Assembly (NCBI RefSeq): GCF_048403405.1
Contig: NZ_CP183129.1
DNA: 64,000 nt
Strand: one strand, 5' to 3'
Source: Escherichia coli
GTDB taxonomy: Bacteria; Pseudomonadota; Gammaproteobacteria; Enterobacterales; Enterobacteriaceae
Shown: in pieces, positions 27,041-63,527 of the stretch
Layout: each line of letters opens with the position of its first letter
How positions within the stretch are numbered: position 1 is the first letter of the stretch
Translations under genes and position numbers: made by a program
Notes under the pieces: model-generated
Told to the model about the DNA's origin: nothing
What the model saw: only the letters and a program-made list of their open reading frames with translations
Databases searched by the model: none

Positions 27041-27165
27041 AGCACGAGAGCCTTTTTTGTCAGCTATCTATACTTTAAGGTGACTGCCAAAACAGACTCG
27101 ACGTAGCCTTCGAGCTGCGCACCAACACGGCCTCAGATGGGCCACATCTGGAGAAACACCGCAAT

Positions 27166-27178
27166 GTCAGTTATTGGT
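27166..27178. repeat. prophage attachment-site core, left copy (attL)
   Basis: GTCAGTTATTGGT identical to 62788-62800; preceded here by the native pflA ATG (27164-27166). Confidence 0.75.
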
Positions 27179-27253
27179 GACATTTTTTGATATCTAATTA
27201 CATGAAATAAAAGGATTTATTTCTTGTCACGTCCACACATTGACCACATCGAC

Positions 27254-27282
27254 AAAAAAGCCCCTCGACTGAGGGGCTTTCT
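27254..27282 (-). terminator. bidirectional hairpin terminator downstream of ogr
   Basis: AGCCCCTC-gact-GAGGGGCT flanked by A-run/T-run. Confidence 0.5.
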
Positions 27283-27290
27283 GTTTGTAA

Positions 27291-27509
27291 TTACATCCAC
27301 ATAATTTGCTGTCCTGATGGCAACGGGTGCGGCCTTACGGCGTGGACTTCTCCCGGCTTCACGATGTATCGCTGTACCGACTCATAAGTGATGAACGTGG
27401 CGCTGCAATTCACGTTCTGGCACTGATGATAACGCTCTTTTGTCGTGTCAGTGATATAGCGACTTGTACGCGCATGTGCGGCATGCTGGCATAAAGGACA
27501 ATGAAACAT
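27291..27509 (-). CDS. ogr: late-gene transcriptional activator Ogr (zinc finger)
   Basis: ORF 27291..27572; MFHCPLCQHAAHARTSRYITDTTKERYHQCQNVNC matches P2 Ogr; start placed at ATG 27509. Confidence 0.9.
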   Translation of the reverse strand: MFHCPLCQHAAHARTSRYITDTTKERYHQCQNVNCSATFITYESVQRYIVKPGEVHAVRPHPLPSGQQIMWM

Positions 27510-27590
27510 CGCGAGCACCTCTTCCGGTTTTGTTGATGGTGCCATTTTAGTTAATTTATCCTTACAAAACAAACAGATAAAACAAAAACA

Positions 27591-28754
27591 TCACTCATCA
27601 TCTTCTGTTTCGTACTCCACATCAGAAAGCCTGACCTCAAGCTCTAAGGACGTCGTGAAGCCGCTATTATTCAGAAAATGTGTCACCTTAGTGATTGTCC
27701 AGTCCTGCTCGTCTATGACGCGCTTAAAGCCAGACACTTTGACCGGTGTTTCCGTGTAAATATCTGCCCGACCGGTAGCCAGGCTGATGGAGAACTCCGC
27801 AACGCCCCGTTGCAGTTTATCCCACTTCGCCTGAGCGGCGCGCATGGCCTGCGCTTTCGTGGCATATACCGTGGTCAGGGCAAAAACGTTGTCAGCCTCA
27901 CCGGCCATGTATTCACCTTCACGCGCTTCCGGTACTTTAGGCGCTTTCTTCTGCCTGACCGGTTTCGCTTTCGGGTGCTCCAGTGCGCGCAGGTGTTTCT
28001 CTTTCTTTTTGCGTTTCAGTTTTACCTTCTGCTTTTGAGGCTTCGGGTCTTTGGTGTGTAGCCATTTTGCCGTTACACCGGTGTAGGCTCCACGGTCAGC
28101 AATCGCAAAATGATGGCGGTCGCCGTCGCTGCGGGTTATGGTGACCTGCGGGATTTTTTTACCGCTGGCCGTCACTCCCTGCCCCGCTTTGAGAAACAAC
28201 AGTTTTCCCATTTTTACCGACACCTCCCCGCCGTTGCGTTCAGCAAGGCGGGTCAGGAATTTTGCATCAGACTCCTGCGACTGGTCGATGTGCGGGATTT
28301 TAATTCCGGCCAGTGACGGCGCGACACTGGCTTCCAGCCTGTTACGGGAGGCTATCACCTCAACAATCGCACCGAGCGTGGTGTCATGCCAGGAGCCTTC
28401 ACTGCGGGAATTGAGCGTCCCGCGAAAATCTGCACTCCGGGCGCGGATGGTAACCACATCCGGCGCGCCCCGGTGTTCAACCTCATCAACGGTAAATTTC
28501 CCTTTGCATACCAGGGCAAAACCTTTCCAGCCGATATACACCGTCAGGACAGCGCCACGAACCGGCAGCCCGACCTGCCCGTCGGCATCGTTCAGTTCAA
28601 TATCAAGCTGGTCAGCCTCAAAGCCCCGGTTATCCGTCAGGGTCATGCTCATCAGACGGTCGCTGATATTGCCGGTAATATCCCTGCTGTCGAGCATCAG
28701 CATGTAATCCGGCGTCAGCGTACTGCCTGCATCAAATGTCAGCGCATCCAGCAT
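27591..28754 (-). CDS. D: tail protein D (late control D)
   Basis: 387-aa ORF; P2 gene order and size. Confidence 0.85.
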   Translation of the reverse strand: MLDALTFDAGSTLTPDYMLMLDSRDITGNISDRLMSMTLTDNRGFEADQLDIELNDADGQVGLPVRGAVLTVYIGWKGFALVCKGKFTVDEVEHRGAPDVVTIRARSADFRGTLNSRSEGSWHDTTLGAIVEVIASRNRLEASVAPSLAGIKIPHIDQSQESDAKFLTRLAERNGGEVSVKMGKLLFLKAGQGVTASGKKIPQVTITRSDGDRHHFAIADRGAYTGVTAKWLHTKDPKPQKQKVKLKRKKKEKHLRALEHPKAKPVRQKKAPKVPEAREGEYMAGEADNVFALTTVYATKAQAMRAAQAKWDKLQRGVAEFSISLATGRADIYTETPVKVSGFKRVIDEQDWTITKVTHFLNNSGFTTSLELEVRLSDVEYETEDDE

Positions 28755-29233
28755 TATCCCGCCCCCGTCATACCCGTGAATCTGGTCGCCATACTGCCAG
28801 CCTTACCGATGAGCGATTCCGCCTGTTTACCGATATCGCCATAAAGCGCGGCCAGTGATTCATCAACGCGGGTGAGCGACAGCGTAAAATCAATTTTCCG
28901 GGGTGTGCCGTCTGCAAAGAAAATACTCCCTGTTTCACTCACCCTGCTGATGACATACATGCCGTAAATCATGCCGGTGCCATCCAGCAACGGCCACGCC
29001 CGACCTTCCTCTGCCATCAGCCTGAGCGTGGTCATCGTCAGCTTTCCGCCTGTCAGTTCGGGATAAAGCACACCGGCAAGCGTAATGTTTTCCTCACCCA
29101 CACCGAGAAACTGAAAGGCATCCCGTTTACCGATACGGGAATTTGACGGCCAGCGATAATCTGATTCACGCTGCATGGTCTGGTGTGGCAGCGTCTGGCG
29201 CATAAAAACAAACATACCTAACGCGAGCATCAT
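28754..29233 (-). CDS. U: tail protein U
   Basis: 159-aa ORF; position between T and D. Confidence 0.85.
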   Translation of the reverse strand: MMLALGMFVFMRQTLPHQTMQRESDYRWPSNSRIGKRDAFQFLGVGEENITLAGVLYPELTGGKLTMTTLRLMAEEGRAWPLLDGTGMIYGMYVISRVSETGSIFFADGTPRKIDFTLSLTRVDESLAALYGDIGKQAESLIGKAGSMATRFTGMTGAG

Positions 29234-29247
29234 TTTTCGTCACCTCC

Positions 29248-32115: not shown

Positions 32116-32171
32116 GGTTTTCTCACTTATGAATCGGGGTTAACCGGTCAGCCAGGCTGACCGGATGAAAA

Positions 32172-32690: not shown

Positions 32691-32702
32691 CGGTCAGGCT
32701 CC

Positions 32703-34353: not shown

Positions 34354-35460
34354 ATGTCTAAAACACGCGATGATTTCAGCTCAAAAACTGTAAGAGCTCT
34401 AGCACTACGGGCTGGTTATAGGTGCTCATTCCCCGGTTGTAATCAGCTTACAGTTGGCCCCAGTGATGAATCCTTAACATCTATCACAAATATTGGGGTA
34501 GCTGCGCACATTCATGCCGCAGCTCCTGGGCCATTAGCAAGACGATATGATCCTAATCAAACACCAGATGAAAGGAAAGATATAAATAATGGCATCTGGA
34601 TGTGTGTTAATCACAGCGTTGAAATTGATAGAGATGAAATTAGATATACAGCAGAAATTCTTAAAGAAATGAAGAAAGCCCACGAAGAAGAGATTAAAAA
34701 AGAGGTGAGCAATGGTTCTTCATCAACCAAACATAATGATTTCATTGCAATAGGTATAGACATTATCGTTTTCGGAGAGCTTACCGGAATCTCAACCAAT
34801 GAGTGGACTATAAAATTTGCAAACTTCTTTACTGGCGATTTATCTAAGTTAATATCTTTCAACGAAAGATTCCACTCCATCCCTACCGAAGAAAAATTTA
34901 TTCTAGTTAATCAACTTGGTGAGGGGCGTTTGTTATCAGCACCAATAAAATTAAATAAATTACCAGATAGCTATGAAGTAATCGTCCCTGTTGAAATAGA
35001 CACTCCGCGCATCAATTGCAATAGCCTCCCAATGGATTTAGATATTTTCACGACAGGCGATTTATTTGTAAATAGTTCTGGTGATATAGCTACGATATCG
35101 GGGTTTGAAGCTTTACCACAAAAAATATATACTTCCCTTTCCACCATTAGAGGTGAGATTTATTCCCATCCAACATTGGGTTCCAGAATAAGACAGTTCT
35201 TCCATGACTTTGAAGGAACAATGTGGCTAGACAAATTAGTTAAATTAGAAGTTATACGCTTATCTTGTATACCAATTTTTGATTCAATCACAAAAAACAA
35301 ATACACTCCATTACATTGTGTAAAAAATGTCAAAAATATTCGGGTGATACCAACTGAATATAAAGATAGCAAATTACCTATTGAGTTCACCCTTGATATT
35401 GAAGGTTTCGGCATCTGGTCCAAAGAAATAAGTGTTTTCTCACCTAAATACGATGAATAA
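34354..35460 (+). CDS. accessory (moron) protein with N-terminal HNH-nuclease-like motif; function unknown
   Basis: ORF 34318..35460 (TTG); probable ATG start 34354 with AAAGG SD. Motif RCSFPGC...AAHIHAAAPG...NNGIWMCVNHSVEID fits the HNH pattern; AT-rich; at the P2 Z/fun variable position. Confidence 0.6.
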   Translation: MSKTRDDFSSKTVRALALRAGYRCSFPGCNQLTVGPSDESLTSITNIGVAAHIHAAAPGPLARRYDPNQTPDERKDINNGIWMCVNHSVEIDRDEIRYTAEILKEMKKAHEEEIKKEVSNGSSSTKHNDFIAIGIDIIVFGELTGISTNEWTIKFANFFTGDLSKLISFNERFHSIPTEEKFILVNQLGEGRLLSAPIKLNKLPDSYEVIVPVEIDTPRINCNSLPMDLDIFTTGDLFVNSSGDIATISGFEALPQKIYTSLSTIRGEIYSHPTLGSRIRQFFHDFEGTMWLDKLVKLEVIRLSCIPIFDSITKNKYTPLHCVKNVKNIRVIPTEYKDSKLPIEFTLDIEGFGIWSKEISVFSPKYDE

Positions 35461-35932
35461 AATTGAAGTTCTTGAACCGCTATATTTGGCTCCGGTATTT
35501 ACTCCGTGAGTGGTATCCTAGGGCCCTGTGCGGAGGATTTCATTGTAATGCTCATACGCTGTAGCCAGGTTCATGTTTCTTCAGCAAGGCCATTTGGGCT
35601 AGTGGCCTGCTCCCCATTGCTCCACACAAAAAATTATTCGTTACGTCCGCTCCTGGCACACAGTAGACATCGAGAGACAGCTTCGAGCGATAATCAGAAG
35701 TTCGCAATTGTCATCACCCAAAAGTTGTTTATAACTTGTAGCAAGGTGCATTGTTCAACGTTGAGTTGGTCAAGTTCAGTTAATGATCGGACGATATCTC
35801 ACTCTGCCCAATAGCACATCTGTTTTACGGGAAGTGAGTTTCAACATCACGAGCTTTGTTAGTAAACATCACTTATTTATTAAGAATATGTTTCATAGAA
35901 CAGGGCCGGAGAACTTAATTTCATATTCTAAA

Positions 35933-35954
35933 AAGTGATGCGCAGACATCACTT
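35933..35954 (-). terminator. hairpin downstream of the 353-aa cargo gene
   Basis: AAGTGATG-cgcaga-CATCACTT about 30 nt after the stop at 35984. Confidence 0.35.
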
Positions 35955-35983
35955 TAAACTTTTTAAAGCGCGAAAACCCTACG

Positions 35984-37045
35984 TCAGAATTTGACAGTAG
36001 GAACGGTTGGCCAGATTCTAGCAATAGACTTAAACATAGTCTCCACAATATATTCGAGAACCTCATCATCAGGCTCTTTCATTAATGCTTTTACTTTATT
36101 TATTCTATCCTGAAGTGAAGGGTGAGATTTTGAAAAACCCCAGTTGTTTTTACCTAACATAGTAACGCTGAATAATGCACAGTATATAGAAAGTCTTCTT
36201 TTCCTGCTCACCAACACACGGTCATACATAGACTCTTCACAGTAATTATCTATATGGTCAAGGATGAATTTATTTGCAAACTCATCACATGAGAACTCTT
36301 CATTATGAGCTTGTTCTTGTGTGAATTCATTCATATCATAACTGGTACCTTCCTGCTGATGAATGATATGTCGGACTTCATGCAAAAATGCCCAAGCAGC
36401 AGCAATAATTGCTAATTCAGCTGTTGCTCTTTTAACTGGTTCGATTTTACTGTCAGGCATGGTGCCAGGTTCAGGAATTCCTATTGGTAGTGGTTTTTCA
36501 TCCGGTACCTCATCTTTAGCCGTGTTTTCAAAAGCGCAGATTAACTGTTCAAAGTTTACGAAGTCTGCCGAACTGAAATCAGCAAGTTCTTCCTGTAGCT
36601 CCTCGAGTAAAACATGTAATTCTGACTCGGTTGAGACTAATGATATTTTCTTTGAGTCAAAAAGATCTAAAATAGAATCCCTTTTATCGATAATGTCTTC
36701 AATTTTTTTATTTTGCTCAGTGTTTATTGCTTCGTAGCCCGCCATTGCAGCAAATGTTCCTATCCAGAACGTGCGCAAAACACGATGATTGAAGCGGATA
36801 AATCGATACATCCCCGCATCAAAAATAAATTTACCGTCTGTATGATTATCGCTATGATTTTGGAAGGTCATGTTAAATTTAGACCAGAACTCATCCAGTT
36901 CATTCTGACGCTCTGGAATAGAGGCTAAAAACATTTTTCTTACGCTGTCCTGAACTGTTTTATCTTCATTATGCTCTTCAAACATTTGCTCACCTATATT
37001 GCTGTTAATTTTATCTAATGATGAACCGAGTGGGTTGTTTACCAA
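35984..37045 (-). CDS. accessory (moron) protein with HEXXH motif (putative zinc metallopeptidase-like); function unknown
   Basis: ORF starts at TTG 37045; more likely ATG 36985 with AGGTGA SD. Motif FLHEVRHIIH; AT-rich; convergent with the HNH gene. Confidence 0.5.
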   Translation of the reverse strand: MVNNPLGSSLDKINSNIGEQMFEEHNEDKTVQDSVRKMFLASIPERQNELDEFWSKFNMTFQNHSDNHTDGKFIFDAGMYRFIRFNHRVLRTFWIGTFAAMAGYEAINTEQNKKIEDIIDKRDSILDLFDSKKISLVSTESELHVLLEELQEELADFSSADFVNFEQLICAFENTAKDEVPDEKPLPIGIPEPGTMPDSKIEPVKRATAELAIIAAAWAFLHEVRHIIHQQEGTSYDMNEFTQEQAHNEEFSCDEFANKFILDHIDNYCEESMYDRVLVSRKRRLSIYCALFSVTMLGKNNWGFSKSHPSLQDRINKVKALMKEPDDEVLEYIVETMFKSIARIWPTVPTVKF

Positions 37046-37776: not shown

Positions 37777-37779
37777 AAA

Positions 37780-42340: not shown

Positions 42341-43126
42341 ATGGTCAGCTATAATGTGACTAATGTGTGGGGGCTAATCGTTTTTTTCCTTTGTAGCTTT
42401 GCAGTATTAGCATTTTTTAGCTTTGGTAAAAGTAACCTTATGAGGCTTATTGCACATTATTTCAATTTTGGATATTCAGACAAAAAATTAAAAAGACTTG
42501 ACCGCGAGTGGCGCGACATTCAACTATTTAAAATAATTAATGGAATCAATGTATCAGGCATTGAAAATGTGAGAATGATACAGCAGGGACTGATTGATGG
42601 AAAACTAAAAACATCGTATTTTTTCCTTACTCGCATCTGGGGTGACATAACAAAACCACCACACATAATTAAAACAATAATTGTAATTCTGGCCAGTATT
42701 TTTTACATTCTCCTCGCATGTTACATACACAACGAACAATCCGTTATAGTAAGGGATGCCATAGGCATACCATATAAAAACATGATGTACTATGTTTATA
42801 GTGACAAAGTTCTTTTATCCTTCAAAAATAAAGCAGTTGAATTTAATAAAACTTATAGCCTTGCCGATTGCAAGAGACTGCAAAACGTATTTATAAAAGA
42901 CACACTTCCTGAGATCGCCTGCAATAAGCTCTTACAGCTAAACGAGGAGGACTCCGAATGGTTAAGCCAGGAGATTAAAGATAATAACAGTCACAAAAAA
43001 GCATTATTAATACTATCCCTCGTCTATTTCACTTCAGGTCTGGTTATATTCCTGTCATATACAAAATTCTTTTACGCCAATAAGAAGGTTTTAGAATACA
43101 AAGCATCAAATAAAAATCACTCATAA
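42341..43126 (+). CDS. accessory membrane protein (3 predicted TM helices), function unknown
   Basis: 261-aa ORF with strong SD AAGGAGAG; very AT-rich; opposite strand to flanking V and S; at the P2 orf30 position. Confidence 0.6.
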   Translation: MVSYNVTNVWGLIVFFLCSFAVLAFFSFGKSNLMRLIAHYFNFGYSDKKLKRLDREWRDIQLFKIINGINVSGIENVRMIQQGLIDGKLKTSYFFLTRIWGDITKPPHIIKTIIVILASIFYILLACYIHNEQSVIVRDAIGIPYKNMMYYVYSDKVLLSFKNKAVEFNKTYSLADCKRLQNVFIKDTLPEIACNKLLQLNEEDSEWLSQEIKDNNSHKKALLILSLVYFTSGLVIFLSYTKFFYANKKVLEYKASNKNHS

Positions 43127-52405: not shown

Positions 52406-53113
52406 CTATATATACTTCCTTTTTACTCTACTTAATTCTATCACTGATGAGGAGTGACAAAATGACAAATTAATAGTATCGATATAATCCAAAATTTGAC
52501 TCTCAACCTCAATAAAAATATTTTTGGGCCCATTACTAATCGATATACCGATTTCATCCAAAACAGCCATCATTTTTCTCTGATGAGTTTTATATTTATA
52601 GTCTTTATTTTCCTCTGTAATATGTGCATTGGCTTCCTCAATAACACATTTGATTCTAGATATTATTTCTAGATAATCTCTCGAAACAGATATATCACCG
52701 CCTTGCGCTTCAGGGAACATAACCCTATACCATCTAAAAAAATTAACTTTCTCTGGATAGATGCTACTTCTTTTAGTTAACTCAGCACTTGCAAATTCTC
52801 TAAACATCGTCAGATGACTAGTGTAATTACTATTATTATTATTTTTAACTCCAGCGTTATATGTCATCAAAGCAATCATAACACCAAAAACGGTAACAAA
52901 AGTTGTTATAAGCCATCCAAACGCCTGAAAATACATTACTATACCAGATGTTTTTTCCGCAAAAAATTTTAAGCACTGGCTATCGAAGCATATATCACGC
53001 TCATATAGCTTTTCATTCTGAATAGTTTCAAAAAGAGAAATTAGCGAAAAAATCAAAAAAAGAGCTGACGACACACCGACAATATATTTGAGAAGTCTAA
53101 TATTTGCATTCAT
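52406..53113 (-). CDS. 2-TM membrane protein, translationally coupled to the upstream reverse transcriptase (candidate effector)
   Basis: 235 aa; start ATG overlaps the RT stop (ATGA at 53113-53110); two N-terminal hydrophobic helices; AT-rich. Confidence 0.6.
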   Translation of the reverse strand: MNANIRLLKYIVGVSSALFLIFSLISLFETIQNEKLYERDICFDSQCLKFFAEKTSGIVMYFQAFGWLITTFVTVFGVMIALMTYNAGVKNNNNSNYTSHLTMFREFASAELTKRSSIYPEKVNFFRWYRVMFPEAQGGDISVSRDYLEIISRIKCVIEEANAHITEENKDYKYKTHQRKMMAVLDEIGISISNGPKNIFIEVESQILDYIDTINLSFCHSSSVIELSRVKRKYI

Positions 53114-54384
53114 AATGGTTTTAAAGATGCCAATCTAGATTTAAAACACTCCAGTTTTTCTTTAAATGATTCAGAGCGAGTAAGAATAATCATCTTATAT
53201 CTCGTCAAATCATATTTTCTTTTATACCAATGTTTATTTTGATTACCTTTCGAATACGACAACTCTAAACTTTTTATAGCTGCATCAATCACAGCAACAT
53301 CTCTTTTAGATGGCATCGGTTTTATTGCCTGCAACTGTTTCTTGAATGATTCATATTTTTCATGCCCAACACGGCCAAGCTTATTCACTCTCCCCATACA
53401 TCTATTGAATTCTTTTCTGTATGCAACACTTGTTTTTGTGTTATTTTTTGCCGCCAGTAATTTCAAATTATGTATAGATGCCCTGATTCTTTTGACTTCA
53501 TCGGATGGTAGTCGAGGTGAGTCATAGTCAACTCTTAAACCATGTACTTTTATAGGTTCAGATGAACAGTGAAATATTTTTGTTTTGTGCTTATTTATCG
53601 GCAAGTCATGCTCAGAAAGCATCCTCTCTATATGGCTTTGCATTTGAGAAAAATCATAATTACTTATTTTAGATGACACGGTAATATCATCTACCAAACG
53701 CGTATAAACAAGTCCTTTCCTCTGCGCACGTCTTACCACATCCCCTTCAACAGCGAATAAACACAAAGTTGCTATATAGCTTGATGTTAAGGCCCCCTGT
53801 ACGACAAAATCATCCTTAGTACATATATCCACCAAGTATTCAAGAGCCTCATCCTTAATATGCAATATCTCCTCAAACACGCTCCTAACCAGATCTCTAT
53901 GGATATTATCGAAAAAATTACTTATATCCACCTTGAGAACTGTTTTTGCTCCACAATGAGCCTTTGCACATGAAACATAGTCACGTTTGACATTAGAATT
54001 TAAAACATCATTTTTACTGGGAACTGAACCAAACAAAAATGAAGGAAAAACAACCAATTCCTTAAAAATACGTTTATTAATTCTACTCTGTAATAATCTC
54101 ATTTTAGGATGTAGGGAGTAGACAATCCGTTTGCTTCCGTCAATTTTGGGAATTTCTTTTAGAGTATATTTCTCATCTAATGATAATTCTGCAATAGCTT
54201 TAAGCTCTTCAACAGAAATCGATAAAGCCTTTGACAACTTTTCAAGTGTTGTGATAGGAGCATTGGATTTGCTGTATGGTTTAAATTTATCCATAAACAT
54301 ACCATTCAAATTCAAAGTTACGTACGGTCTTCCCATACTCAAGGGTGGAACAGCAGAGATGCTTACATCAACAATTGTCAGCAA
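53110..54384 (-). CDS. retron-type reverse transcriptase with about 100-aa C-terminal extension
   Basis: RT motifs IPKIDGSKRIVY, CAKAHCGAKTVLKVDISNFFDNI, QGALTSSYIATLCL, YTRLVDDITV (YxDD), IKVHGL. Track start is TTG 54384; in-frame ATGs at 54336, 54300, 54294. Confidence 0.75.
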   Translation of the reverse strand: MLTIVDVSISAVPPLSMGRPYVTLNLNGMFMDKFKPYSKSNAPITTLEKLSKALSISVEELKAIAELSLDEKYTLKEIPKIDGSKRIVYSLHPKMRLLQSRINKRIFKELVVFPSFLFGSVPSKNDVLNSNVKRDYVSCAKAHCGAKTVLKVDISNFFDNIHRDLVRSVFEEILHIKDEALEYLVDICTKDDFVVQGALTSSYIATLCLFAVEGDVVRRAQRKGLVYTRLVDDITVSSKISNYDFSQMQSHIERMLSEHDLPINKHKTKIFHCSSEPIKVHGLRVDYDSPRLPSDEVKRIRASIHNLKLLAAKNNTKTSVAYRKEFNRCMGRVNKLGRVGHEKYESFKKQLQAIKPMPSKRDVAVIDAAIKSLELSYSKGNQNKHWYKRKYDLTRYKMIILTRSESFKEKLECFKSRLASLKPL

Positions 54385-54625
54385 CAGCCTCTGCTATCTT
54401 TCGACCGTACGTAATGTCGTCGGCTACGGCACCATCGTAGTTGACGACGGTGGGGCCTCGCTGATAGGTCCATAGTGGACGCTTTTTTGTAAAAGCAAAA
54501 ACTGACAATTTAATGTTGTTGACTGCCGCATACCAAGCGAATCGCTGGTGCGCTAAGAATAATGCAACAAAAAAATAAGAATTTCAACCGGGTAACTGCA
54601 AGCCAGCGACATCGTTTAGCGCGCA

Positions 54626-54644
54626 GTGCTTTCCCCGCCTCGCC
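54626..54644. other. phage cos site (19-nt cohesive-end sequence)
   Basis: GTGCTTTCCCCGCCTCGCC is the reverse complement of the P2 cohesive end GGCGAGGCGGGGAAAGCAC as I recall it; located between Q and the A-side genes as in P2. Confidence 0.7.
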
Positions 54645-54805
54645 CGCCCGCTTCGTGGGGCGGTTTTAATGCAGGTGCAATACCGCTTTTGAGCCACGCC
54701 CGTCCTGGCGGACGCACGGCCGGAACATGCAACTCCGGCACATGCAAAACCATGCACATATTGCACGCAGAAAGATAAATGCCAAAATACCTAAATCAAC
54801 TTCCA

Positions 54806-56644
54806 TTAATCAGCCAGATAAGGTTCAACTTTATCTTCCCATACACTAAATAAAGGCAAACAAGTTAAATAAAAGATAAAGACACAGGCAAAAACTGAAG
54901 TTGGTTGATAACAATGATTTACAGTATACCTGCCATGAGCCATCGTGTGTCTAATTGCAGCACCACCTTTCATATTGAACAATAAATCCATAGTCAATAC
55001 ATGATCACTATCAAAAACACCTTCCATTTCACTCCTATAATTTGCAAGCATTTGAGATAGGCTAGTAGCCTCCTCAAAAAGCGACACATCTATTTTCGTT
55101 GTTTCTTTTCTTCTTAATTCTAAAATCCATCTAATTGAATTCTCCAATTGCGGCAATAACAAATAACAGGCAGACACATAATCTCCCTGCCAAAGCTTAT
55201 AAAACCCCAAAGAAAATATTTCTGCATACCCAGGTGGAACAAATGCACTTTGTTGTGAGATTGGGTCAAATGTATTTTCATTTAATGAATACCTAGCCAA
55301 CACACTTTGCCTAACGACTTCAAACTCACCACAAACATAGACCTGATGCTCAATGTTACTAGTTCTTAAATAATTTGCACAAGCATCATTTAAACTTATA
55401 TCCCCCGCAGGATCCAAAGGTGAACGACTTGCTACAACGCGCCCTCTATCATCATAAACAACCGTTTCACTCATATTAAGAAAAAAATGTTTTTTAGCAT
55501 CGGAACGAGCTCTTTCCATAATTTCACTGGCACTTACAATCTTAAATCTAGCAATTAAAGTTTTAATTACCCTTGAGAAATCCAATTGATTATAAACATG
55601 CTCTTTCTGAGCGATAACATCACTAAGATCCATTGGTATTGCAAAGAAGTGCATTTCATCATTGATTTGATCTCGAATAGAATTCAATTCCTCTCTAATC
55701 TTTTTAATTTCTTCATTCATTCCACCAATTGCTCTAAATTCGCCAAGAGCAACTCTTAACCAATGAGCCTTCAATATTGAAGATGAAGACTGTTCAAATT
55801 GAGCCAATGTTATTTCTGACGCTTTAATTCTGCACCGTCTTCCTTGCTCTTCCATATCGTTTTTAACATATAATTCAGACGCAAAATAAAACAATTTTTT
55901 CACTGCATCAAAATAAGACGCTCCACAATGCTCATCAGCTATCTTTTCTGCATTCTCAGCCAATTGCAAGGGACACAATAAATTATTCTTATAAAGAATT
56001 TCAGAAACTCTTAATACACCGGTGAATATACCAGAGTCTATTAATACATGATATAACCTTAATGTCGAATCAACTATCCCCCCTTGTAGTTGTTTTTTCC
56101 TGCCAATAAGCATGCGCGATATTGCGATACCTCTATCCAAGCAGTCAACAACATCAAAAATATGGATATCACCTGACTCTTGTTTTTCTATTAAAGTATC
56201 GCAAGCATCATTAACCATTAGAGAATATGACTCTATTGCTTTATTGGCAGAGTCTATATCCTTACGGTTATTTATCCATAAAACATCACACACCCTAGAT
56301 ATAATATAAGGATTATCGGAGTTTTCTTTAATACAAGTTAATATTGTTGAAAAACTCTCCTTATAATCTGAAGGCCTATAGCCCCTCTCAGGATAGAGAA
56401 TGATTTTTGGCTCAAAACCGATAATATCACCAGACCTAGAAAATTTAAAATTAAACAACGCACGTAATAAATAGCAAAGCCGCCAAGAACTTACATCGTT
56501 TTTTAGCTTGTAAGATGACAACAACTGAACAAAATAAGACTCCATATCAAAATGAGAATAACTTCTTGGCGATGATAATATACTGGCGTATTCACTTTTT
56601 TTAAAATCATCAACTGAAATAGAAAAAACATCAAACTCGCTCAT
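54806..56644 (-). CDS. large accessory protein of unknown function (612 aa) at the P2 tin/old position
   Basis: ATG 56644 with strong SD AGGTGAGGA; no Walker A or other recognised motif except a possible Rx4H (IRHTMAHGRY) near the C-terminus; AT-rich. Confidence 0.6.
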   Translation of the reverse strand: MSEFDVFSISVDDFKKSEYASILSSPRSYSHFDMESYFVQLLSSYKLKNDVSSWRLCYLLRALFNFKFSRSGDIIGFEPKIILYPERGYRPSDYKESFSTILTCIKENSDNPYIISRVCDVLWINNRKDIDSANKAIESYSLMVNDACDTLIEKQESGDIHIFDVVDCLDRGIAISRMLIGRKKQLQGGIVDSTLRLYHVLIDSGIFTGVLRVSEILYKNNLLCPLQLAENAEKIADEHCGASYFDAVKKLFYFASELYVKNDMEEQGRRCRIKASEITLAQFEQSSSSILKAHWLRVALGEFRAIGGMNEEIKKIREELNSIRDQINDEMHFFAIPMDLSDVIAQKEHVYNQLDFSRVIKTLIARFKIVSASEIMERARSDAKKHFFLNMSETVVYDDRGRVVASRSPLDPAGDISLNDACANYLRTSNIEHQVYVCGEFEVVRQSVLARYSLNENTFDPISQQSAFVPPGYAEIFSLGFYKLWQGDYVSACYLLLPQLENSIRWILELRRKETTKIDVSLFEEATSLSQMLANYRSEMEGVFDSDHVLTMDLLFNMKGGAAIRHTMAHGRYTVNHCYQPTSVFACVFIFYLTCLPLFSVWEDKVEPYLAD

Positions 56645-56798
56645 TCCTCACCTTTAAAGCACTTAACAAACAATCATGGTAAACAATACCAAACTGCAAG
56701 CAACGATTAAATACAGAAAACTCTTTCTGTCGAGATTTTTCAATAACACTAAATATATACAGTACGAAATTATCTAATATTGCGTGAATTTTTGCCAT
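56631..56798 (-). CDS. small hypothetical protein (55 aa) coupling gene A to the 612-aa gene
   Basis: ATG 56798-56796 overlaps the A stop (TAATG); its 3' end overlaps the 612-aa gene start by 14 nt. Confidence 0.35.
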   Translation of the reverse strand: MAKIHAILDNFVLYIFSVIEKSRQKEFSVFNRCLQFGIVYHDCLLSALKVRNERV

Positions 56799-59083
56799 TA
56801 TGTCCACTCCATTACTGTTGAGAATCCCGGCCACTCATCAATGACCGGATACGTGAATTTTTTCCCGCCATAATTTATGGTCGCTCCCCGAGCCAGCGCC
56901 TCAAGCTCCCATCGCTGTGGCCTGATACCGTTCTGAGCAAGGTCAACGCGGATACGGGTAATTTGCATTCGTTCCGACCGGGTCAGTCTGGCCGATGGCG
57001 CTATTTCATGCGGTTTTAACGGGCTTCCGTTTCTTTGCTGACGGTTTGGTCTTCTCAGACCGTGTTTTAATGCACCTCTGAGCGCCCTCACGACCTCCTG
57101 GTCATTCCATTCGATAACACCGTCATCTACCAGATTAAGCACTGCTACGGCGTGTTCAGAAGGCGTGGGAGCCGGTGACGAAGTATCACCACCGGTGAGC
57201 TTTCCACAGTTATTGACAGGACTCCGAGGCGCGGCGATGCCGCTTTTTAAAGTCAACGGCTCAACGACCGGAACTTTCGGCACAATGCGCCAGTCCGTCG
57301 TTCTGGTGATATGAATATGACGCGTGCCGAGATGCGGCGCGTAAATGCCGACCACTCTCTCGACTTCTTCCTCGTACTCGTTAACGTCATCCGACGGGCT
57401 ACGGGCGACCCTGACAGTCTGACAATCGCGCGGGACATTTGCCCCGCCCTGCGCGCTGATATACAACGCAAAATCACCACTGTCTGCGGCGGCGCGTGCA
57501 GCCTCGACGCGTTCGTCAAACTCATCAGCAATGCTGACGCCGCGAGGCAATTTGCGTAGTTCACGGTAAGCCCCCATTGTCGGCAGGCCAACCGTTTTAA
57601 ATTGCGGGATACGCCACGTTGACGCCCATGCGGTAACAGCCGCTGCAGTGTCTTTCAGCGGCCTGCCGGTATCGTTATCGAGCTGACCATCCAGTGCATA
57701 GCCGTCGATATTTTTTGAGATGTATTTCGCGATATATCCCGCAGCACCGCCCCGGTTAAGGTGTTTCGCCTGAAAACGGTTTCGCGCGGCTCCTCTTTCG
57801 TCGCCATCCTCTTTGAGCGCATAGCGACGCATGATTTCGATAATCTGGTTACGCTGGCGTGGATTACAAAAAAGCATCATATGCCAGTGCGGCGTTCCGT
57901 CGTGGTGTGGCTCGACGACTCGCAAACCGTAGACCTGTAAATCATTATCCTTGAATGCCGTGCGCATCAGGCTCCAGATACGGCAGAGATAACGCTGCGC
58001 ATCCTTCGGATTAAATGCCTCATCATTCCAGCCGTGATTAAGCTGCACGGTTTTACTTTCTCCTTTTCCGACCTGACGTGTCGGGTGATACTTTGACGGC
58101 GCGGTCAGCGTGATAAACATCCCCACATCACCCTCTGCGGCGGCGTAACGCTCAATACCGGCGATGGTGTTCATCAGCTCCATCCGGCGAATTTCAGGAT
58201 TAGAAATACTGCCCATCACCTTACTGATAAGGTCGATGCGCTCGCCGGTTTCCCTGTTTTCGAGGTCACACGATTTAAGAAATTCCAGATTTGCCTGGCG
58301 GCGTGCACGCACATCACGAATGGCGTGTTTACTGGCATAAGGAGAACGATCTTTATTGACCTCCCCGACAGCAATCAGTAACGCCTCATGCCAGCGCATA
58401 CGCTGGCCTTTAAGCTGATGAGTCCACCACTCATCGTTAAACAGGCGGGCAATGGCAGAATATGCCTGCCTCGTGGTCATCTGTCCTTTACGGTATTTTT
58501 TCCAGTAGAGCGGGGAAATATTGAAAGCACGTGCAGCGCCAGCAACATGACTATACAGGTGAGCCTGCGCCTCATCCGTAAACAGCGATTCTTTTTCGCC
58601 ATGCGCATCCACCCAGGCATCGCTGAGTTCCTCATACATCATGAAAAGCTGCGATGAGATACGGGCGGCAAACTTTTTCAGCTCCTTGTCATTCATTCCA
58701 GGCAGGCGCGCATAGTGGTCACGCTCTGCCAGAAACAGCAACGACGCGTCGGTGTTCATTTCATGGCGCTGATTCACGCGCTCAATGCGCGGCCATAAAC
58801 GACGCTGAAAAGTGGATGTGAGGAAATAAAACCCGTGTACCGGGCTTTTATTGCGCCGGATGTAGTCATAGCGTGAAGTAAACAGCGAGCGCAAAAAGTA
58901 AGGCAGGCGGTTAATCGTGGATAAAACCCCTTGCACCTGACGCATCTCGTCACGTGTAAGGGGTCTTTCGCGCCCGACGGCCTCGCGTGGCGCGTTCCAT
59001 GCATAAGCACCGGTAAACGTCTTACCGGTGCCTGCGGCAAATGCTGACGGAGGGACAAAACGCCCGGAGGCTTTAACGGCCAT
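56798..59083 (-). CDS. A: replication initiation protein A (rolling-circle nickase)
   Basis: ORF 56798..59125; start placed at ATG 59083 (MAVKASGRFVPP...), 761 aa; catalytic region YIAKYISKNIDGYALDG. Confidence 0.9.
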   Translation of the reverse strand: MAVKASGRFVPPSAFAAGTGKTFTGAYAWNAPREAVGRERPLTRDEMRQVQGVLSTINRLPYFLRSLFTSRYDYIRRNKSPVHGFYFLTSTFQRRLWPRIERVNQRHEMNTDASLLFLAERDHYARLPGMNDKELKKFAARISSQLFMMYEELSDAWVDAHGEKESLFTDEAQAHLYSHVAGAARAFNISPLYWKKYRKGQMTTRQAYSAIARLFNDEWWTHQLKGQRMRWHEALLIAVGEVNKDRSPYASKHAIRDVRARRQANLEFLKSCDLENRETGERIDLISKVMGSISNPEIRRMELMNTIAGIERYAAAEGDVGMFITLTAPSKYHPTRQVGKGESKTVQLNHGWNDEAFNPKDAQRYLCRIWSLMRTAFKDNDLQVYGLRVVEPHHDGTPHWHMMLFCNPRQRNQIIEIMRRYALKEDGDERGAARNRFQAKHLNRGGAAGYIAKYISKNIDGYALDGQLDNDTGRPLKDTAAAVTAWASTWRIPQFKTVGLPTMGAYRELRKLPRGVSIADEFDERVEAARAAADSGDFALYISAQGGANVPRDCQTVRVARSPSDDVNEYEEEVERVVGIYAPHLGTRHIHITRTTDWRIVPKVPVVEPLTLKSGIAAPRSPVNNCGKLTGGDTSSPAPTPSEHAVAVLNLVDDGVIEWNDQEVVRALRGALKHGLRRPNRQQRNGSPLKPHEIAPSARLTRSERMQITRIRVDLAQNGIRPQRWELEALARGATINYGGKKFTYPVIDEWPGFSTVMEWT

Positions 59084-59569: not shown

Positions 59570-59571
59570 TA

Positions 59572-60095: not shown

Positions 60096-60158
60096 GACTT
60101 TCTCCAGGCAAAAAGAAGCCCCGCACGATTAAGTGCGTTAAAAACTCTGGTTAATTAC

Positions 60159-60659: not shown

Positions 60660-60916
60660 TTCCAGACCCTCCGGCTTTTCAGAAAGGTCAGAGCCTTCTT
60701 TAACGGACTCTGTTTTTTGGTGCGGATAATGATTCCCTTACGCCCCTTACCGTGGGTAATGGTGAAGTCAATCGCCCTTGGGCTTTCGTTACGCAATAAC
60801 TGAGCAATACAACGAGGCTCGTTCATCCTTTCCACCTTAAGCCGCACGGCCATGTCTTGATTTGCTGTAACTAATGCGATTTTTCCAGTCATGCCATTAT
60901 GTCGGAGCTTCATCAA
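60656..60916 (-). CDS. hypothetical early protein (P2 orf78 position)
   Basis: 86-aa ORF between cox-like gene and B. Confidence 0.55.
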   Translation of the reverse strand: MMKLRHNGMTGKIALVTANQDMAVRLKVERMNEPRCIAQLLRNESPRAIDFTITHGKGRKGIIIRTKKQSPLKKALTFLKSRRVWK

Positions 60917-61175
60917 CTAGCTGGGCTGCGTACTTGTCCCACTCACGGCGATTAATCCATAACTCAGCATGACCGCCCGGCTTTAATGGGTCCGTCATAT
61001 AAAAGGCTGGTAACTTGCCTGCTTTCGCCATTTCAGCAACAGCGCGAGGCGTCTTACCGATGTAAAGAGCAAAACCCTCTTTCGAGAGCAAATCCGACGG
61101 TGCGGCTGCAAGTTTGATGTCACATTTTTTACTTTTTGTGAGATCAGATACTTTTTCTCCAACATCGTTATTCAT
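60897..61175 (-). CDS. cox: Cox-like excisionase/transcriptional regulator
   Basis: ORF 60897..61223; HTH-like segment ALYIGKTPRAVAEMAKAGKLPAFYMTDP resembles P2 Cox; start probably ATG 61175 (about 92 aa), uncertain. Confidence 0.65.
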   Translation of the reverse strand: MNNDVGEKVSDLTKSKKCDIKLAAAPSDLLSKEGFALYIGKTPRAVAEMAKAGKLPAFYMTDPLKPGGHAELWINRREWDKYAAQLVDEAPT

Positions 61176-61297
61176 TTCTGATCCAATACTCATTTTGATA
61201 TCCTCAACTTTGGTGCCATTCAACCAGAGCTATTTGAAGCCGCTCTGCGTTGTTCTGGCGTGTCGCATACAACATAAATTACGAGATACGACAATTC
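61176..61297. promoter_or_regulatory. lysogeny/lysis switch region (divergent Pe/Pc promoters and operators)
   Basis: Intergenic region between divergent cox-like and C genes, as in P2. Confidence 0.5.
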
Positions 61298-61609
61298 ATG
61301 TCAAATACACAAATCACATCTCAAGCAGAGAAACTCGCACTTATTCGGGAATCAGAAAGAATGACAAGGAAGCAAGTTGCTGAATTAACTGGAATTAACT
61401 ACAACACCTATGCTGGATATGAGCAGGGAAAAGTAAAGATGTCTTTTGACGCAGGTATGAAATTTTTCAAGCCAGAAAGATTTCGCAAGTACCGTGACTG
61501 GTTCATGTTTGATGAAACTGATCCCGCTGGCGGACAAATAGCCCCGGCGCTCGCGCACATTGGGCAAGACTCAACAACCTTGCACCACTCAGACCAAAAG
61601 ACTGGCTGA
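61298..61609 (+). CDS. C: immunity repressor C (HTH)
   Basis: ORF 61250..61609; start placed at ATG 61298 (MSNTQITSQAEKLALIRESERMTRKQVAELTGINY...); C-terminus GQIAPALAH...SDQKTG resembles P2 C. Confidence 0.8.
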   Translation: MSNTQITSQAEKLALIRESERMTRKQVAELTGINYNTYAGYEQGKVKMSFDAGMKFFKPERFRKYRDWFMFDETDPAGGQIAPALAHIGQDSTTLHHSDQKTG

Positions 61610-61702
61610 CGATTTATTCAGCATATGTGTGCAGTAAATGTACGAAAGAAAATTGCATTAATTTTCAAGTAGTAGAAGTAAACAGCGTCATCGGAGGGCT
61701 TT

Positions 61703-62698
61703 ATGTCTATTAAAAAGCTCGATGATGGTCGTTATGAAGTGGACGTCAGACCGCAGGGTGCAGATGGAAAACGTATCAGGCGGAAATTTAAAACTAAAGG
61801 TGAAGCTCAAGCATTCGAACGTCATGTGCTGGTTAACTACCACAACAAAGAGTGGCTGGAGAAGCCAGCCGACCGCCGAACTCTTACAGAGTTGTTAGGC
61901 AGATGGTGGATATATCACGGAAAATCACATGAGCGTGGAAATATTGAACGGGGGCGTTTGACGACAATAATCGCCAAATTTGCAGAAATGGGGGTGTCCA
62001 GAGCTGACCAGTTAACAAAGAAAACGATAACTGATTATCGAGTTGTAATGATGAACGATGGTCTAAAACCAGCCAGCGTAAATCGGCATCTGGCAATAAT
62101 GAGCGGGATGTTCACCAAGTTAATTGACGCCGGTGAATACCACTCTCACAACCCGTTCCGTGAGGTTAAGCGGTTACGTGAAGCTGTTACAGAAATGGCT
62201 TTTTTGTCCAGTGAAGAGATTACGCGGCTGTTATCCATGCTTGATGGTGATGAGTTAAATGCAACTCTGGTCTGCCTTTCTACTGGTGGACGCTGGAGTG
62301 AAGTGTCTAATTTGAAAGCTGAACACATCATTAACCAGATGGTTACGTTTATGAAAACTAAAAACGGAAAGCGCAGGACAATTCCCGTTTCGCAGGACCT
62401 GATTAAAAGGATCAAGACCAAAAATTCAGGCAGGCTTTTTAATGCCAGTTACTACAAAGTGCGTAACGCTCTCAGGGAAGTAAAACCCGATTTACCTGAC
62501 GGACAAGCAGTACATGTTTTGAGGCATACATTTGCCACACATTTTATAATGAATGGAGGTAACATAATCACATTGCAGCGCATCCTGGGTCATTCTAACA
62601 TTCAGCAAACTATGACCTACGCACACTTTGCACCGGATTTCTTACAAGATGCTGTGACTCTTAACCCGGTGTCAGGAATGTCCATAATGCGTCCATAA
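61703..62698 (+). CDS. int: tyrosine integrase
   Basis: 331 aa; MSIKKLDDGRY N-terminus; catalytic HVLRHTFATH and TYAHF; adjacent to attR. Confidence 0.9.
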   Translation: MSIKKLDDGRYEVDVRPQGADGKRIRRKFKTKGEAQAFERHVLVNYHNKEWLEKPADRRTLTELLGRWWIYHGKSHERGNIERGRLTTIIAKFAEMGVSRADQLTKKTITDYRVVMMNDGLKPASVNRHLAIMSGMFTKLIDAGEYHSHNPFREVKRLREAVTEMAFLSSEEITRLLSMLDGDELNATLVCLSTGGRWSEVSNLKAEHIINQMVTFMKTKNGKRRTIPVSQDLIKRIKTKNSGRLFNASYYKVRNALREVKPDLPDGQAVHVLRHTFATHFIMNGGNIITLQRILGHSNIQQTMTYAHFAPDFLQDAVTLNPVSGMSIMRP

Positions 62699-62729
62699 AC
62701 CAGAGTTAACTAGAGCCAATTGAAGCGAT

Positions 62730-63527
62730 ATGAGTAATTTAACTAATTGTAATACAACAGAAAATACCGCTACGGCGGGGGCTACCAAGTCAGTTATTGG
62801 TCGCATTCACTCCTTTGAATCCTGTGGAACCGTAGACGGCCCGGGTATTCGCTTTATCACCTTTTTCCAGGGCTGCCTGATGCGCTGCCTGTATTGTCAT
62901 AACCGCGACACCTGGGACACGCATGGCGGTAAAGAAGTTACCGTTGAAGATTTAATGAAAGAGGTGGTGACCTATCGCCACTTTATGAACGCTTCCGGCG
63001 GCGGCGTTACCGCATCCGGCGGTGAAGCAATCCTGCAAGCTGAGTTTGTTCGTGACTGGTTCCGCGCCTGCAAAAAAGAAGGCATTCATACCTGTCTGGA
63101 CACCAACGGTTTTGTTCGTCGTTACGATCCGGTGATTGATGAACTGCTGGAAGTAACCGACCTGGTAATGCTCGATCTCAAACAGATGAACGACGAGATC
63201 CACCAAAATCTGGTTGGAGTTTCAAACCACCGCACGCTGGAGTTCGCCAAATATCTGGCGAACAAAAATGTGAAGGTGTGGATCCGCTACGTTGTTGTCC
63301 CAGGCTGGTCTGACGATGACGATTCAGCGCATCGCCTCGGTGAATTTACCCGTGATATGGGCAACGTTGAGAAAATCGAGCTTCTCCCCTACCACGAACT
63401 TGGCAAACACAAATGGGTGGCGATGGGTGAAGAATACAAACTTGATGGTGTTAAACCACCGAAGAAAGAGACCATGGAACGCGTGAAAGGCATTCTTGAG
63501 CAGTACGGTCATAAGGTAATGTTCTAA
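62730..63527 (+). CDS. pflA: pyruvate formate-lyase activating enzyme with phage-derived N-terminal extension
   Basis: Radical-SAM motif CLMRCLYC; matches PflA from [11 protein letters not shown] onward; the native ATG is absent here (AAG TCA GTT) and the only in-frame start is ATG 62730, adding about 19 residues. Confidence 0.85.
62788..62800. repeat. prophage attachment-site core, right copy (attR), inside pflA 5' coding sequence
   Basis: GTCAGTTATTGGT identical to 27166-27178; continues into pflA codons (CGC ATT CAC ...). Confidence 0.75.

Follow-up and report, generated by a model that had tools for sequence, protein, structure and literature searches.

Phage 21/e14 in icd and the tRNA- and tmRNA-targeting phages 186 and Fels-2 carry a substitute for the gene end that they displace, and in these phages it is a 3′ end that is replaced by a near-duplicate, so that the target gene keeps its function. 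Integration into icd is cited in PMC3603311. Target-restoring integration into a protein-coding gene has also been described for the dusA-specific integrases of prophages and genomic islands (Farrugia et al. 2015, PMC4482086), where the replacement rebuilds a structural beta-strand. Canonical P2 uses intergenic sites, for example locI (PMC3448106), and for the P2-type phages PhiD145 and PhiD160, summarised by Nilsson and Haggard-Ljungquist 2011, an attB is listed at MG1655 position 950293 (Table 1 of PMC3448106, which uses old K-12 numbering, as calibration with ileY showed); that summary gives the coordinate only and mentions neither pflA nor a replacement N-terminus.

Here, we analysed a 64,000-nt stretch of Escherichia coli DNA (the window) in which a P2-like prophage occupies the 5′ end of pflA. 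With a probability of roughly 0.85, we read this locus as a P2-like phage integrated at the PhiD145/PhiD160 pflA site, with a phage-borne ATG and leader replacing the 5′ end of the gene, which would remain expressed and yield an active enzyme. Differently from phage 21/e14, 186 and Fels-2, here the 5′ end is replaced together with start codon and promoter, and the substitute is unrelated sequence. The dusA system shares the restoration of a protein gene, but its integrase family and target are unrelated, and at pflA only Met1 is replaced and a non-homologous 20-residue tail is added. The features at the two junctions are as follows.

24690-26972, plus strand: pflB, formate C-acetyltransferase, intact, upstream of attL (ORF list; RefSeq of a strain identical at both junctions)
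26973-27163, plus strand: native pflB-pflA intergenic region, collinear with the MG1655 attB-left region and now cut off from pflA
27164-27190, plus strand: orphan stub MSVIGDIF-stop, native pflA codons 1-5 joined to phage DNA
27166-27178, plus strand: attL core GTCAGTTATTGGT, with CATT at 27181-27184
27230-27248, minus strand: two directly repeated candidates for P′ arm-type Int sites, TGTGGACG and TGTGGTCA, with 11-bp spacing and a match to the consensus
27257-27280: G+C-rich hairpin, the ogr terminator on the minus strand, with its T-run on that strand
62679-62697, minus strand: two directly repeated candidates for P arm-type Int sites, TATGGACA and TATGGACG, with 11-bp spacing and an overlap with the int stop
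62730-62789, plus strand: phage-encoded leader, ATG plus 19 codons, the last base of the final codon being the first core base
62730-63527, plus strand: 265-aa chimeric pflA, in which native residues 2-246 come after the 20-residue leader from the phage
62789-62801, plus strand: attR core, with CATT at 62804-62807
63537-63566, plus strand: intrinsic terminator after pflA, the first plus-strand terminator-like site downstream of C

With an offset of +777 from old to new K-12 numbering at the pflA position, which we take to apply, 950293 becomes 951070, that is, nt 11 of pflA (950340-951080), within the core. By this coordinate and the assumed offset, the site matches the published PhiD145/PhiD160 attB, and the specificity would be of the PhiD145 type. 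The two phages were reportedly treated by Karlsson et al. in 2006 (J Bacteriol 188:3923) and Mandali et al. in 2010 (Virology 408:64), and partial PhiD145 int sequences are presumably those under AM158280 and AJ298559. The likeness between PhiD145/PhiD160 and our prophage lies in the coordinate and in the shared P2-type phage organization, C/Cox switch, P2-type integrase and arm-site consensus tgTGGaCa (PMC3448106). The original prediction had implied that a P2-like att site inside pflA would be new, which has to be withdrawn in view of the PhiD145/PhiD160 attB, its use in ~7% of complete E. coli genomes and the RefSeq record WP_000067979.1. A search for literature linking pflA to a P2-like phage, a prophage, an integration site, attB or an integrase returned nothing relevant, and pfl is unmentioned in Bobay et al. 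2013 and in a 2026 survey of P2-like phages. The arrangement is already catalogued, with a mapped and commonly used site, a common prophage and a fused gene that RefSeq annotates correctly, and for the window alone it matters little.

The prophage comprises the following parts.

27179-62788: prophage body between the core copies, P2-like (Peduovirus), 35.6 kb
27291-27509, minus strand: ogr, late-gene activator, annotated ogrK, the first phage gene beside attL
34354-36985: cargo at the Z/fun position, two proteins on opposite strands (PADLOC, PHROGs and RefSeq names)
34354-35460, plus strand: first Z/fun cargo protein, a nuclease-like N-terminus plus DUF2634
35984-36985, minus strand: second Z/fun cargo protein, Lit-family protease-like
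52406-56644, minus strand: cargo at the old/tin position (PADLOC and RefSeq names)
52406-53113, minus strand: retron Ec48-family (type IV) 2TM effector (PADLOC 2TM_IV, 4e-85)
53110-54384, minus strand: retron reverse transcriptase (PADLOC RT_IV, 1e-176)
54806-56644, minus strand: PDC-S39/DUF7380 protein (PADLOC PDC-S39, 2e-68)
56798-59083, minus strand: gpA replication endonuclease (phrog_91 'nicking at origin of replication', E = 0; RefSeq)
60897-61193, minus strand: cox, early repressor and excision directionality factor (RefSeq 'Cox family DNA-binding protein'; PF10743 on the Klebsiella copy)
61298-61609, plus strand: C, HTH protein (RefSeq)
61703-62698, plus strand: int, tyrosine integrase of 331 aa and of the type that targets pflA at the PhiD145 site (phrog_1, 2e-80; PF24624, PF00589)

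Counting one core copy, the phage genome is 35,623 bp long. In the RefSeq annotation the P2 gene order is complete, starting beside attL (ogr, D, U, T, E, FII, FI, cargo, G, H, I, J, W, V) and running on to attR (orf, S, R, lysis genes, X, L, M, N, O, P, Q, cargo, A, B, cox, C, int), and the window region 27179-52000 is ~97% identical in nucleotide sequence to phage P2 (AF063097) across 86% of its length, which covers most late genes and bears out the assignment to the P2 family made in the original prediction. The P2 late-gene set and order that define Peduovirus (Q P O N M L X Y K R S V W J I H G FI FII E T U D ogr) are present, together with the gpA endonuclease, gpB, a divergent C/Cox switch and int downstream of C. 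Cox, the HTH protein C and the integrase have the order and orientation of a P2-like switch in RefSeq, the role of C being taken from PMC1904263. PHROGs matches in the prophage include the major head protein, tail fibre, gpA nickase and integrase, and PF10743 Phage_Cox and PF26815 Phage_RepB were matched on an identical Klebsiella copy. The prophage is complete and probably viable. A scan of the whole window at Rfam gathering thresholds gave no match to a retron msr/msd or another known RNA.

The integrase sets this prophage apart from canonical P2. It is 100% identical to the Int of phage pro147 and at least 99% identical to those in 20 phage records, and the next types are the Int of P88 (61%) and those of P2 and Wphi (~55%). 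Identities of 99.4-100% were found in pro147, pro483, P24A7b, P24E6b, D8, 11W, 12W, S164 and the Yersinia phages vB_YpM_46/115, all Peduovirus. With pro147, P24A7b, vB_YpM_46 and their kin the prophage shares P2-like late genes and an identical attP including the leader mini-ORF and the core, but it is ~3 kb larger than these sequenced phages and differs from them in cargo (the Ec48-type retron, PDC-S39 and the pair of nuclease and Lit-like protein). Phage P88 resembles the prophage in int-to-end geometry but has neither the leader nor a pflA-like core and therefore uses a different site.

The 13-bp core occurs on the plus strand of the window exactly twice, at the two junctions listed above; ~0.04 copies are expected by chance, and two or more copies were seen in 0 of 100 shuffled sequences. 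In a four-way comparison of attL, attR, the empty K-12 MG1655 site and the attP of the free phage P24A7b, attL consists of attB-left plus attP-right and attR of attP-left plus attB-right, an exact reciprocal exchange with an identical core at both junctions, as in Campbell-type integration. This alignment with the uninterrupted pflB-pflA locus of MG1655 confirmed the predicted crossover within pflA codons 1-5 and the CATT two bases past the core, which is present at both copies. The attB core comprises pflA nucleotides 3-15, and strand exchange within it keeps codons 2-5 intact. On each side of the core lies a pair of candidate arm-type repeats spaced by 11 bp, which are sequence matches against a background of 1.8 per kb. 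Int-mediated site-specific recombination between attP and attB would thus have inserted the phage into pflA.

This geometry leaves little room for the alternative that the 13-bp repeat is coincidental, or that the extended N-terminus is ancestral and the K-12 form derived. Besides the exact att alignment, over 5,000 E. coli genomes have an uninterrupted site, int and the extension form one contiguous stretch in free phage genomes, where the leader opens a 27-codon mini-ORF spanning attP, and an int remnant precedes the extension in Salmonella and Citrobacter. We regard this alternative as refuted by the alignment and the free-phage mini-ORF.

On the attL side, the collinear MG1655 attB-left region has remained beside pflB, and pflA has been separated from its native start and promoter, as predicted. 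Within the intergenic region lie the terminator of pflB and the native 5′ region of pflA with its Shine-Dalgarno (SD) sequence GGAG, for which pairing with the anti-SD amounts to -6.4 kcal/mol; Sauter and Sawers are said to have placed the native pflA promoter within this region in 1990. The native promoter, Shine-Dalgarno and ATG would thus stay behind at attL, heading a stub of 8 codons that reads ATG TCA GTT ATT GGT GAC ATT TTT TGA from 27164, the fusion to phage DNA that had been recognised from the sequence. The hairpin next to ogr may also stop transcripts from the orphaned pflA promoter.

On the attR side, the phage sequence keeps the pflA reading frame open, and the frame is held in every lineage examined. 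The int stop codon lies at 62696-62698, and the phage ATG was correctly located at 62730, at a distance from the stop of 31 nt and not of 30 nt as first given. An in-frame TGA directly upstream (62721-62723) makes an earlier start impossible, and the next in-frame ATG, Met51 of the chimera (native Met32), lies past the first of the CX3CX2C cysteines, and a start there could therefore not yield an active enzyme; ATG 62730 thus stands as the sole usable in-frame start. The 20 codons of the leader take the place of Met1, a net gain of 19 residues and in line with the predicted extension of about 19. Residues 21-265 of the chimera are 100% identical to residues 1-245 of the crystallised PFL-AE in PDB 3C8F/3CB8, and RefSeq names the extended protein pflA (WP_000067979.1, 265 aa) and does not call it a pseudogene. 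An AlphaFold2 run on an alignment of 13 native and leader-bearing PflA sequences gave a poor model (mean pLDDT 54.7, residues 1-68 all <50) and says nothing specific about the leader, which is probably a disordered tail.

The genes C, int and pflA are co-directional, and no plus-strand terminator was found from C up to the pflA terminator. We infer from the sequence that pflA is transcribed by read-through of the lysogenic Pc-C-int transcript and translated from ATG 62730, and that the extended enzyme is active. A weak promoter in the int 3′ end might assist the read-through. However, promoter-like hexamers near the int 3′ end did not exceed the shuffled-sequence frequency in a consensus scan and showed no positional conservation between the phage and the Salmonella fossil; since the scans were not enriched over shuffles, no promoter is claimed. 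Translation would begin in an unstructured region with almost no Shine-Dalgarno: SD pairing ahead of ATG 62730 comes to -2.1 kcal/mol, the same as the mean for random sequence, so translation could be weaker than in non-lysogens, and the start region is unusually unstructured (-2.7 kcal/mol), which favours SD-independent initiation.

The loss of the native promoter and Shine-Dalgarno, a replacement ribosome-binding region without a real SD and a promoter signal that stays at background would also be expected if integration were a knock-out or strong knock-down, with a poorly transcribed or translated chimeric ORF or an inactive enzyme and with PDH or TdcE/PflD-type routes used instead. We consider this improbable, given that at least 1,000 contigs and ~400 complete genomes carry the same unbroken ORF, which none of the inspected rows lists as a pseudogene, that the unstructured start region favours initiation and that Salmonella and Citrobacter have long had this type of 5′ end alone, with int decayed, yet conserve the pflA body at 93-99%. 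The weak SD is also compatible with an expressed pflA whose leader is untranslated; a non-canonical codon close to the junction, such as ATT 62796, would then serve as the start and yield a nearly native N-terminus. The G-rich GCGGGGG (62775-62781) upstream of this ATT could speculatively serve it. Such a start appears more doubtful still, as ATT starts are extremely rare in E. coli, the ATG with its upstream sequence and first codons is conserved in nearly every lineage seen, and no fossil has lost the open 60-nt frame although the int next to it has decayed, a pattern that an untranslated leader would not lead one to expect. Expression from the phage-borne ATG 62730 therefore remains the reading that we prefer. 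If the extended enzyme is active, an important gene of anaerobic metabolism would serve as a landing site at little cost, a clean case in which integration at the 5′ end of a gene important for metabolism comes with a phage-borne substitute start, without duplication of the target.

Both junctions were found in 402-404 of 5,426 complete E. coli genomes (~7.4%), and the same int and leader, with the phage occupying pflA, are present in K. pneumoniae (336 contigs) and E. albertii. Anaerobic PFL activation in ~7% of E. coli and in many Klebsiella would then depend on phage-derived signals for expression tied to the lysogenic operon. The active phages are too nearly clonal to reveal phage-level selection on the leader ORF; when IMG/VR was scanned for the leader motif, all matches belonged to this E. 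coli-type phage, and none was a live phage with a Salmonella- or Citrobacter-type leader.

In Salmonella (subsp. enterica, arizonae and diarizonae) and Citrobacter (freundii and portucalensis), the native pflA 5′ region is gone, and in its place stand a decayed int 3′ end (68-70% nucleotide identity, with indels) and a homologous leader that provides the sole pflA start. These fossil leaders have 40-60% amino acid identity and always 20 codons, in frame and without indels or stops, ahead of a PflA body that is 93-99% identical. Nearly every lineage seen has kept the ATG together with GAAGCGAT before it and MSNL as its first four codons, and one leader variant from an unknown taxon (P0036) reads MSNT. 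In Salmonella the fossil adjoins sopD2, and of the phage the islet there retains just the leader and the terminal 215-260 nt of int, with no phage DNA found on its pflB-proximal (attL) side. The scan of genome contigs with an exact 21-mer did not pick up the representatives of S. enterica subsp. enterica and S. bongori and therefore does not establish fixation across Salmonella; in subsp. enterica the fossil was recovered from protein fragments. Both genera are mixed-acid fermenters that rely on PFL, so a phage-type leader and phage-derived upstream DNA would suffice for PflA function there, and judged by their sequences the fossils argue that the chimeric pflA works.

These findings suggest that in Salmonella and Citrobacter PflA synthesis has come to rely for good on a phage-derived start, and that an old P2-like att site is marked by the sopD2 islet. 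Going one step further, we lean towards the view that the attP-left arm is a portable gene-repair cassette that was domesticated for PflA in these genera after an ancient P2-like integration at this site, with sopD2 at the former prophage position in Salmonella. No description of such a domestication was found in the searchable literature, in which the matches to sopD2 together with pflA were false hits to 'pFLAG'. If confirmed, the fossils would be useful for understanding the origins of effector islets and for correct annotation of pflA start sites. As proposed, the cassette would comprise promoter activity, a start region without Shine-Dalgarno, the ATG and the 20-codon leader. The constant leader length of 60 nt could instead reflect the spacing between arm and core in attP, and not a coding constraint.

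The 64-kb window holds two copies of the 13-mer GTCAGTTATTGGT and no more, one at 27166-27178 and one at 62789-62801, compared with a chance expectation of ~0.04 matches when one mismatch is allowed. The left junction (attL) reads ...cgcaATG TCA GTT ATT GGT gaC ATT TTT TGA, i.e., foreign DNA takes over after the ribosome-binding region and codons 1-5 of native pflA, with a stop after eight codons, in agreement with the original prediction that the native start at 27164 is fused to phage DNA. We aligned attL and the right junction (attR) with the empty pflB-pflA locus of MG1655 (attB, NC_000913.3) and the contiguous attP of the isolated Peduovirus P24A7b (LR595887). In this four-way alignment, attL consists of the left part of attB and the right part of attP, attR of the left part of attP and the right part of attB, and only the 13-bp core plus CATT is common to attB and attP. 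This exact reciprocal pattern is that expected of site-specific integration, and comparison with the uninterrupted locus thus verified the predicted crossover core within the first codons of pflA, of which codons 2-5 are unaltered. On each side of the core lie two direct repeats with 11-bp spacing (62679-62697 and 27230-27248), candidate arm sites whose sequence matches the P2-type consensus tgTGGaCa (PMC3448106) and whose arrangement would correspond to the attP layout described for P2.

At attR, pflA is continued by a reading frame that begins in phage DNA, at the following positions:

61703-62698: int, integrase of 331 aa (stop codon at 62696-62698)
62721-62723: in-frame TGA
62730-63527: ORF from the phage ATG through the core into the remaining pflA, 265 aa

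The TGA precludes any start further 5′, and the ATG at 62730 is the only usable in-frame start, as predicted; its position after the int stop was also correct, apart from the distance, which is 31 nt and not 30 bp. Over residues 21-265, the product matches the crystallised E. coli PFL-activating enzyme (3C8F/3CB8) at 100% identity, hence the replacement of Met1 by a 20-residue phage leader is the sole protein change, a net gain of 19 residues as anticipated. The separation of pflA from its native promoter was found as well: the promoter region, Shine-Dalgarno sequence and ATG all remain at attL, heading the stub MSVIGDIF*, with the ogr terminator hairpin (27257-27280) 67 nt 3′ of it. In the unintegrated phage genome, a mini-ORF of 27 codons starts at the counterpart of ATG 62730 and runs through the attP core (7793-7876 in L017, the IMG/VR copy of a vB_YpM_46-like genome). 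Its tail is exchanged for pflA upon integration, and its last three codons and stop become the end of the orphan stub. The integration is confirmed and its initial interpretation supported; the remaining interest lies in the phage-supplied replacement start of pflA and in the apparent domestication of this start in Salmonella and Citrobacter, described below. Phage 21 and e14 integrate in icd and other phages target tRNA genes, a loose resemblance; unlike these, the pflA prophage duplicates nothing homologous but replaces one codon and adds an unrelated tail.

C, int and pflA share the same orientation, and the + strand shows no terminator-like site from C up to the terminator that follows pflA (63537-63566). 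Transcription of pflA would come from read-through of the lysogenic Pc-C-int transcript. Promoter activity in the 3′ end of int may add to pflA expression; promoter consensus matches were not enriched over shuffled sequence, and we therefore claim no specific promoter. Translation would begin at ATG 62730, where Shine-Dalgarno pairing is essentially none (-2.1 kcal/mol, equal to the random mean, versus -6.4 at the native site) and the start region is very unstructured (-2.7 versus -16.5 kcal/mol, positions -35 to +35).

Both junctions are present in 402-404 of the 5,426 complete E. coli genomes (~7.4%), and RefSeq annotates the fused gene as pflA (WP_000067979.1, 265 aa) with its start at the phage ATG; the exact protein is found on at least 1,000 contigs. 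The same pflA site carries int (99.7-100% identity) and the leader in Klebsiella pneumoniae (L009-L011), whose variant is recorded for 336 contigs, and in E. albertii (type strain NBRC 107761, L012), indicating that phage type and att site are common to Escherichia and Klebsiella. We take the offset between old K-12 numbering and NC_000913.3 to be +777 at 0.95 Mb. For the P2-like coliphages PhiD145 and PhiD160, the host site was given as MG1655 coordinate 950293 (Nilsson and Haggard-Ljungquist 2011, PMC3448106, Table 1), in a table that evidently uses older K-12 numbering, since its ileY coordinate lies 1,978 bp below that in NC_000913.3. With the assumed 777, this coordinate becomes 951070, nucleotide 11 of pflA (950340-951080, complement) inside the 13-bp core, matching the PhiD145 integration specificity to ours by coordinate. 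We conclude that the att site was previously mapped and that the arrangement is routine in databases; no mention of pflA in the context of P2-like integration was found in the searchable open-access literature. The novelty implied originally for a P2-like att site inside pflA did not hold up: the site is known, the prophage is common and databases already annotate the fused gene correctly.

Other 265-aa forms came from the 90%-identity PflA cluster. In Salmonella (L006 1395-3060, L008 1360-3040, and the arizonae and diarizonae type strains L013 and L014), pflB and a terminator are followed by sopD2, which lies on the opposite strand, then by ~570 bp and pflA. Within this interval, sopD2, an SPI-2 effector gene, has 34% G+C versus 50% for pflA, no integrase is called, and pflA has lost its native promoter and ribosome-binding region. 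What precedes the Salmonella ATG for 215-260 nt is the decayed 3′ portion of int, which contains frame-breaking indels and is 68-70% identical to window 62516-62735 at the nucleotide level (E from 1e-12 to 1e-18), and in C. freundii M-21 (L015 6070-7075) a 43-aa Int fragment (56% identity) is still detectable upstream. Directly 3′ of the remnant, GAAGCGAT-ATG is present in every lineage, and the leader that it opens is always 20 codons long.

Leader-junction sequences of the fossil loci
Salmonella enterica, no subspecies assigned (L006): MSNLNDCIKKENTAAAAEKK-PIIGR
S. enterica subsp. enterica (L008, fragments P0031-P0033): MSNLT(D/N)CITNESVAVTADKK-PVIGR
S. enterica subsp. arizonae: MSNLTDCIKKENIAVTADKN-PLIGR
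S. enterica subsp. diarizonae: MSNLTNCITKENVAVTADEK-PVIGR
C. freundii: MSNLMPNTETESAVVADDKK-PTIGR
C. portucalensis (P0104): MSNLTHCKDKENTAITAPVK-AVIGR

By sequence, the Salmonella interval seems to be the relic of an insertion at the pflA att site, and the phage-type leader forms the only pflA start in the loci examined. On the attL side of the sopD2 islet no phage DNA is left; sopD2 may have been cargo of the presumed prophage. An exact 21-mer had no match in the species representatives of S. enterica subsp. enterica and S. bongori. The fossil leaders share 40-60% aa identity with the E. coli phage type, the next 100 PflA residues 93-99%, and none of the 60-nt leaders contains an indel or stop. 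With the frame kept, the leader sequence not, and the adjacent int decayed, the reading frame itself was preserved, as would be expected if Salmonella and Citrobacter translate pflA from the leader ATG; the constant length may partly stem from the attP geometry of ancestral phages. Both genera perform PFL-dependent mixed-acid fermentation, so PflA can evidently function with upstream DNA of phage type and a 20-residue leader. No description of this apparent domestication was found in the searchable literature.

That the 13-bp repeat is coincidental, or the long pflA form ancestral, is excluded by the four-way alignment, the free-phage attP ORF and the int-remnant fossils. Insertional inactivation or strong knock-down of pflA would fit the lost promoter and weak Shine-Dalgarno sequence but is improbable, given the intact chimeric gene conserved in hundreds of genomes and the Salmonella and Citrobacter fossils. 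Use of a non-canonical start codon close to the junction is likewise unlikely, as the ATG, upstream octamer and first four codons (MSNL) are kept in nearly all lineages seen, the one exception to MSNL being MSNT in variant P0036 (taxon not assigned).

The 35.6 kb between the cores are a complete P2 genome, and in all features tested the prophage is a member of the P2-like phages. Window 27179-52000 is ~97% identical to P2 across 86% of its length, and for a strain with identical sequence at both junctions RefSeq annotates the full set of P2 late genes in their order as well as gpA, B, Cox, C and Int; PHROGs confirmed major head, tail fibre, gpA nickase and integrase. Int matches the integrase of phage pro147 at 100% identity, and 20 deposited phage genomes, among them phages propagated on Yersinia pestis, encode it at 99% identity or above; the next types are those of P88 (61%) and P2/Wphi (~55%). 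Further genes are:

42341-43126, + strand: phrog_2407 ORF without assigned function, 261 aa, between baseplate V and tail-completion S on the opposite strand, in the position of P2 orf30
52406-54384, - strand: retron Ec48-family (type IV) system in the old/tin cargo position
54806-56644, - strand: 612-aa protein of candidate defence family PDC-S39 (2e-68; DUF7380 in RefSeq), adjoining the retron

The retron comprises a reverse transcriptase (PADLOC RT_IV, 1e-176) and an intact 235-aa effector (2TM_IV, 4e-85); beside it lie ~420 nt of non-coding DNA (54385-54805), and Rfam detected no msr/msd RNA. Strain 4621 has the effector split over two CDSs and a prophage that differs in length by 1 nt. 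Two cargo genes (34354-36985) occupy the P2 Z/fun position between FI and G, the first encoding a 368-aa protein with a DUF2634 C-terminus and an N-terminus resembling nuclease domains of CBASS/Shedu-type effectors (PDC-M68A 1e-23, SduA 1e-16), the second a Lit-family protease-like protein (weak PADLOC match, 1e-9; 'phage exclusion protein Lit family' in RefSeq).

Compared with MG1655 (L004), ycaK and ycaN are absent 3′ of pflA (window 63528-64000), where RefSeq has a partial hypothetical gene followed by ycaM; this is a strain-level difference without apparent connection to the prophage. Several complete RefSeq E. coli chromosomes (TUM1226, OX030728, CPF6, LR-72, CE0011b, E2 and others) have the gpA start (window 59083, - strand) as their first base, which leaves the prophage divided between the two ends of the record, presumably because an assembly-rotation tool took gpA for a replication-initiator gene.
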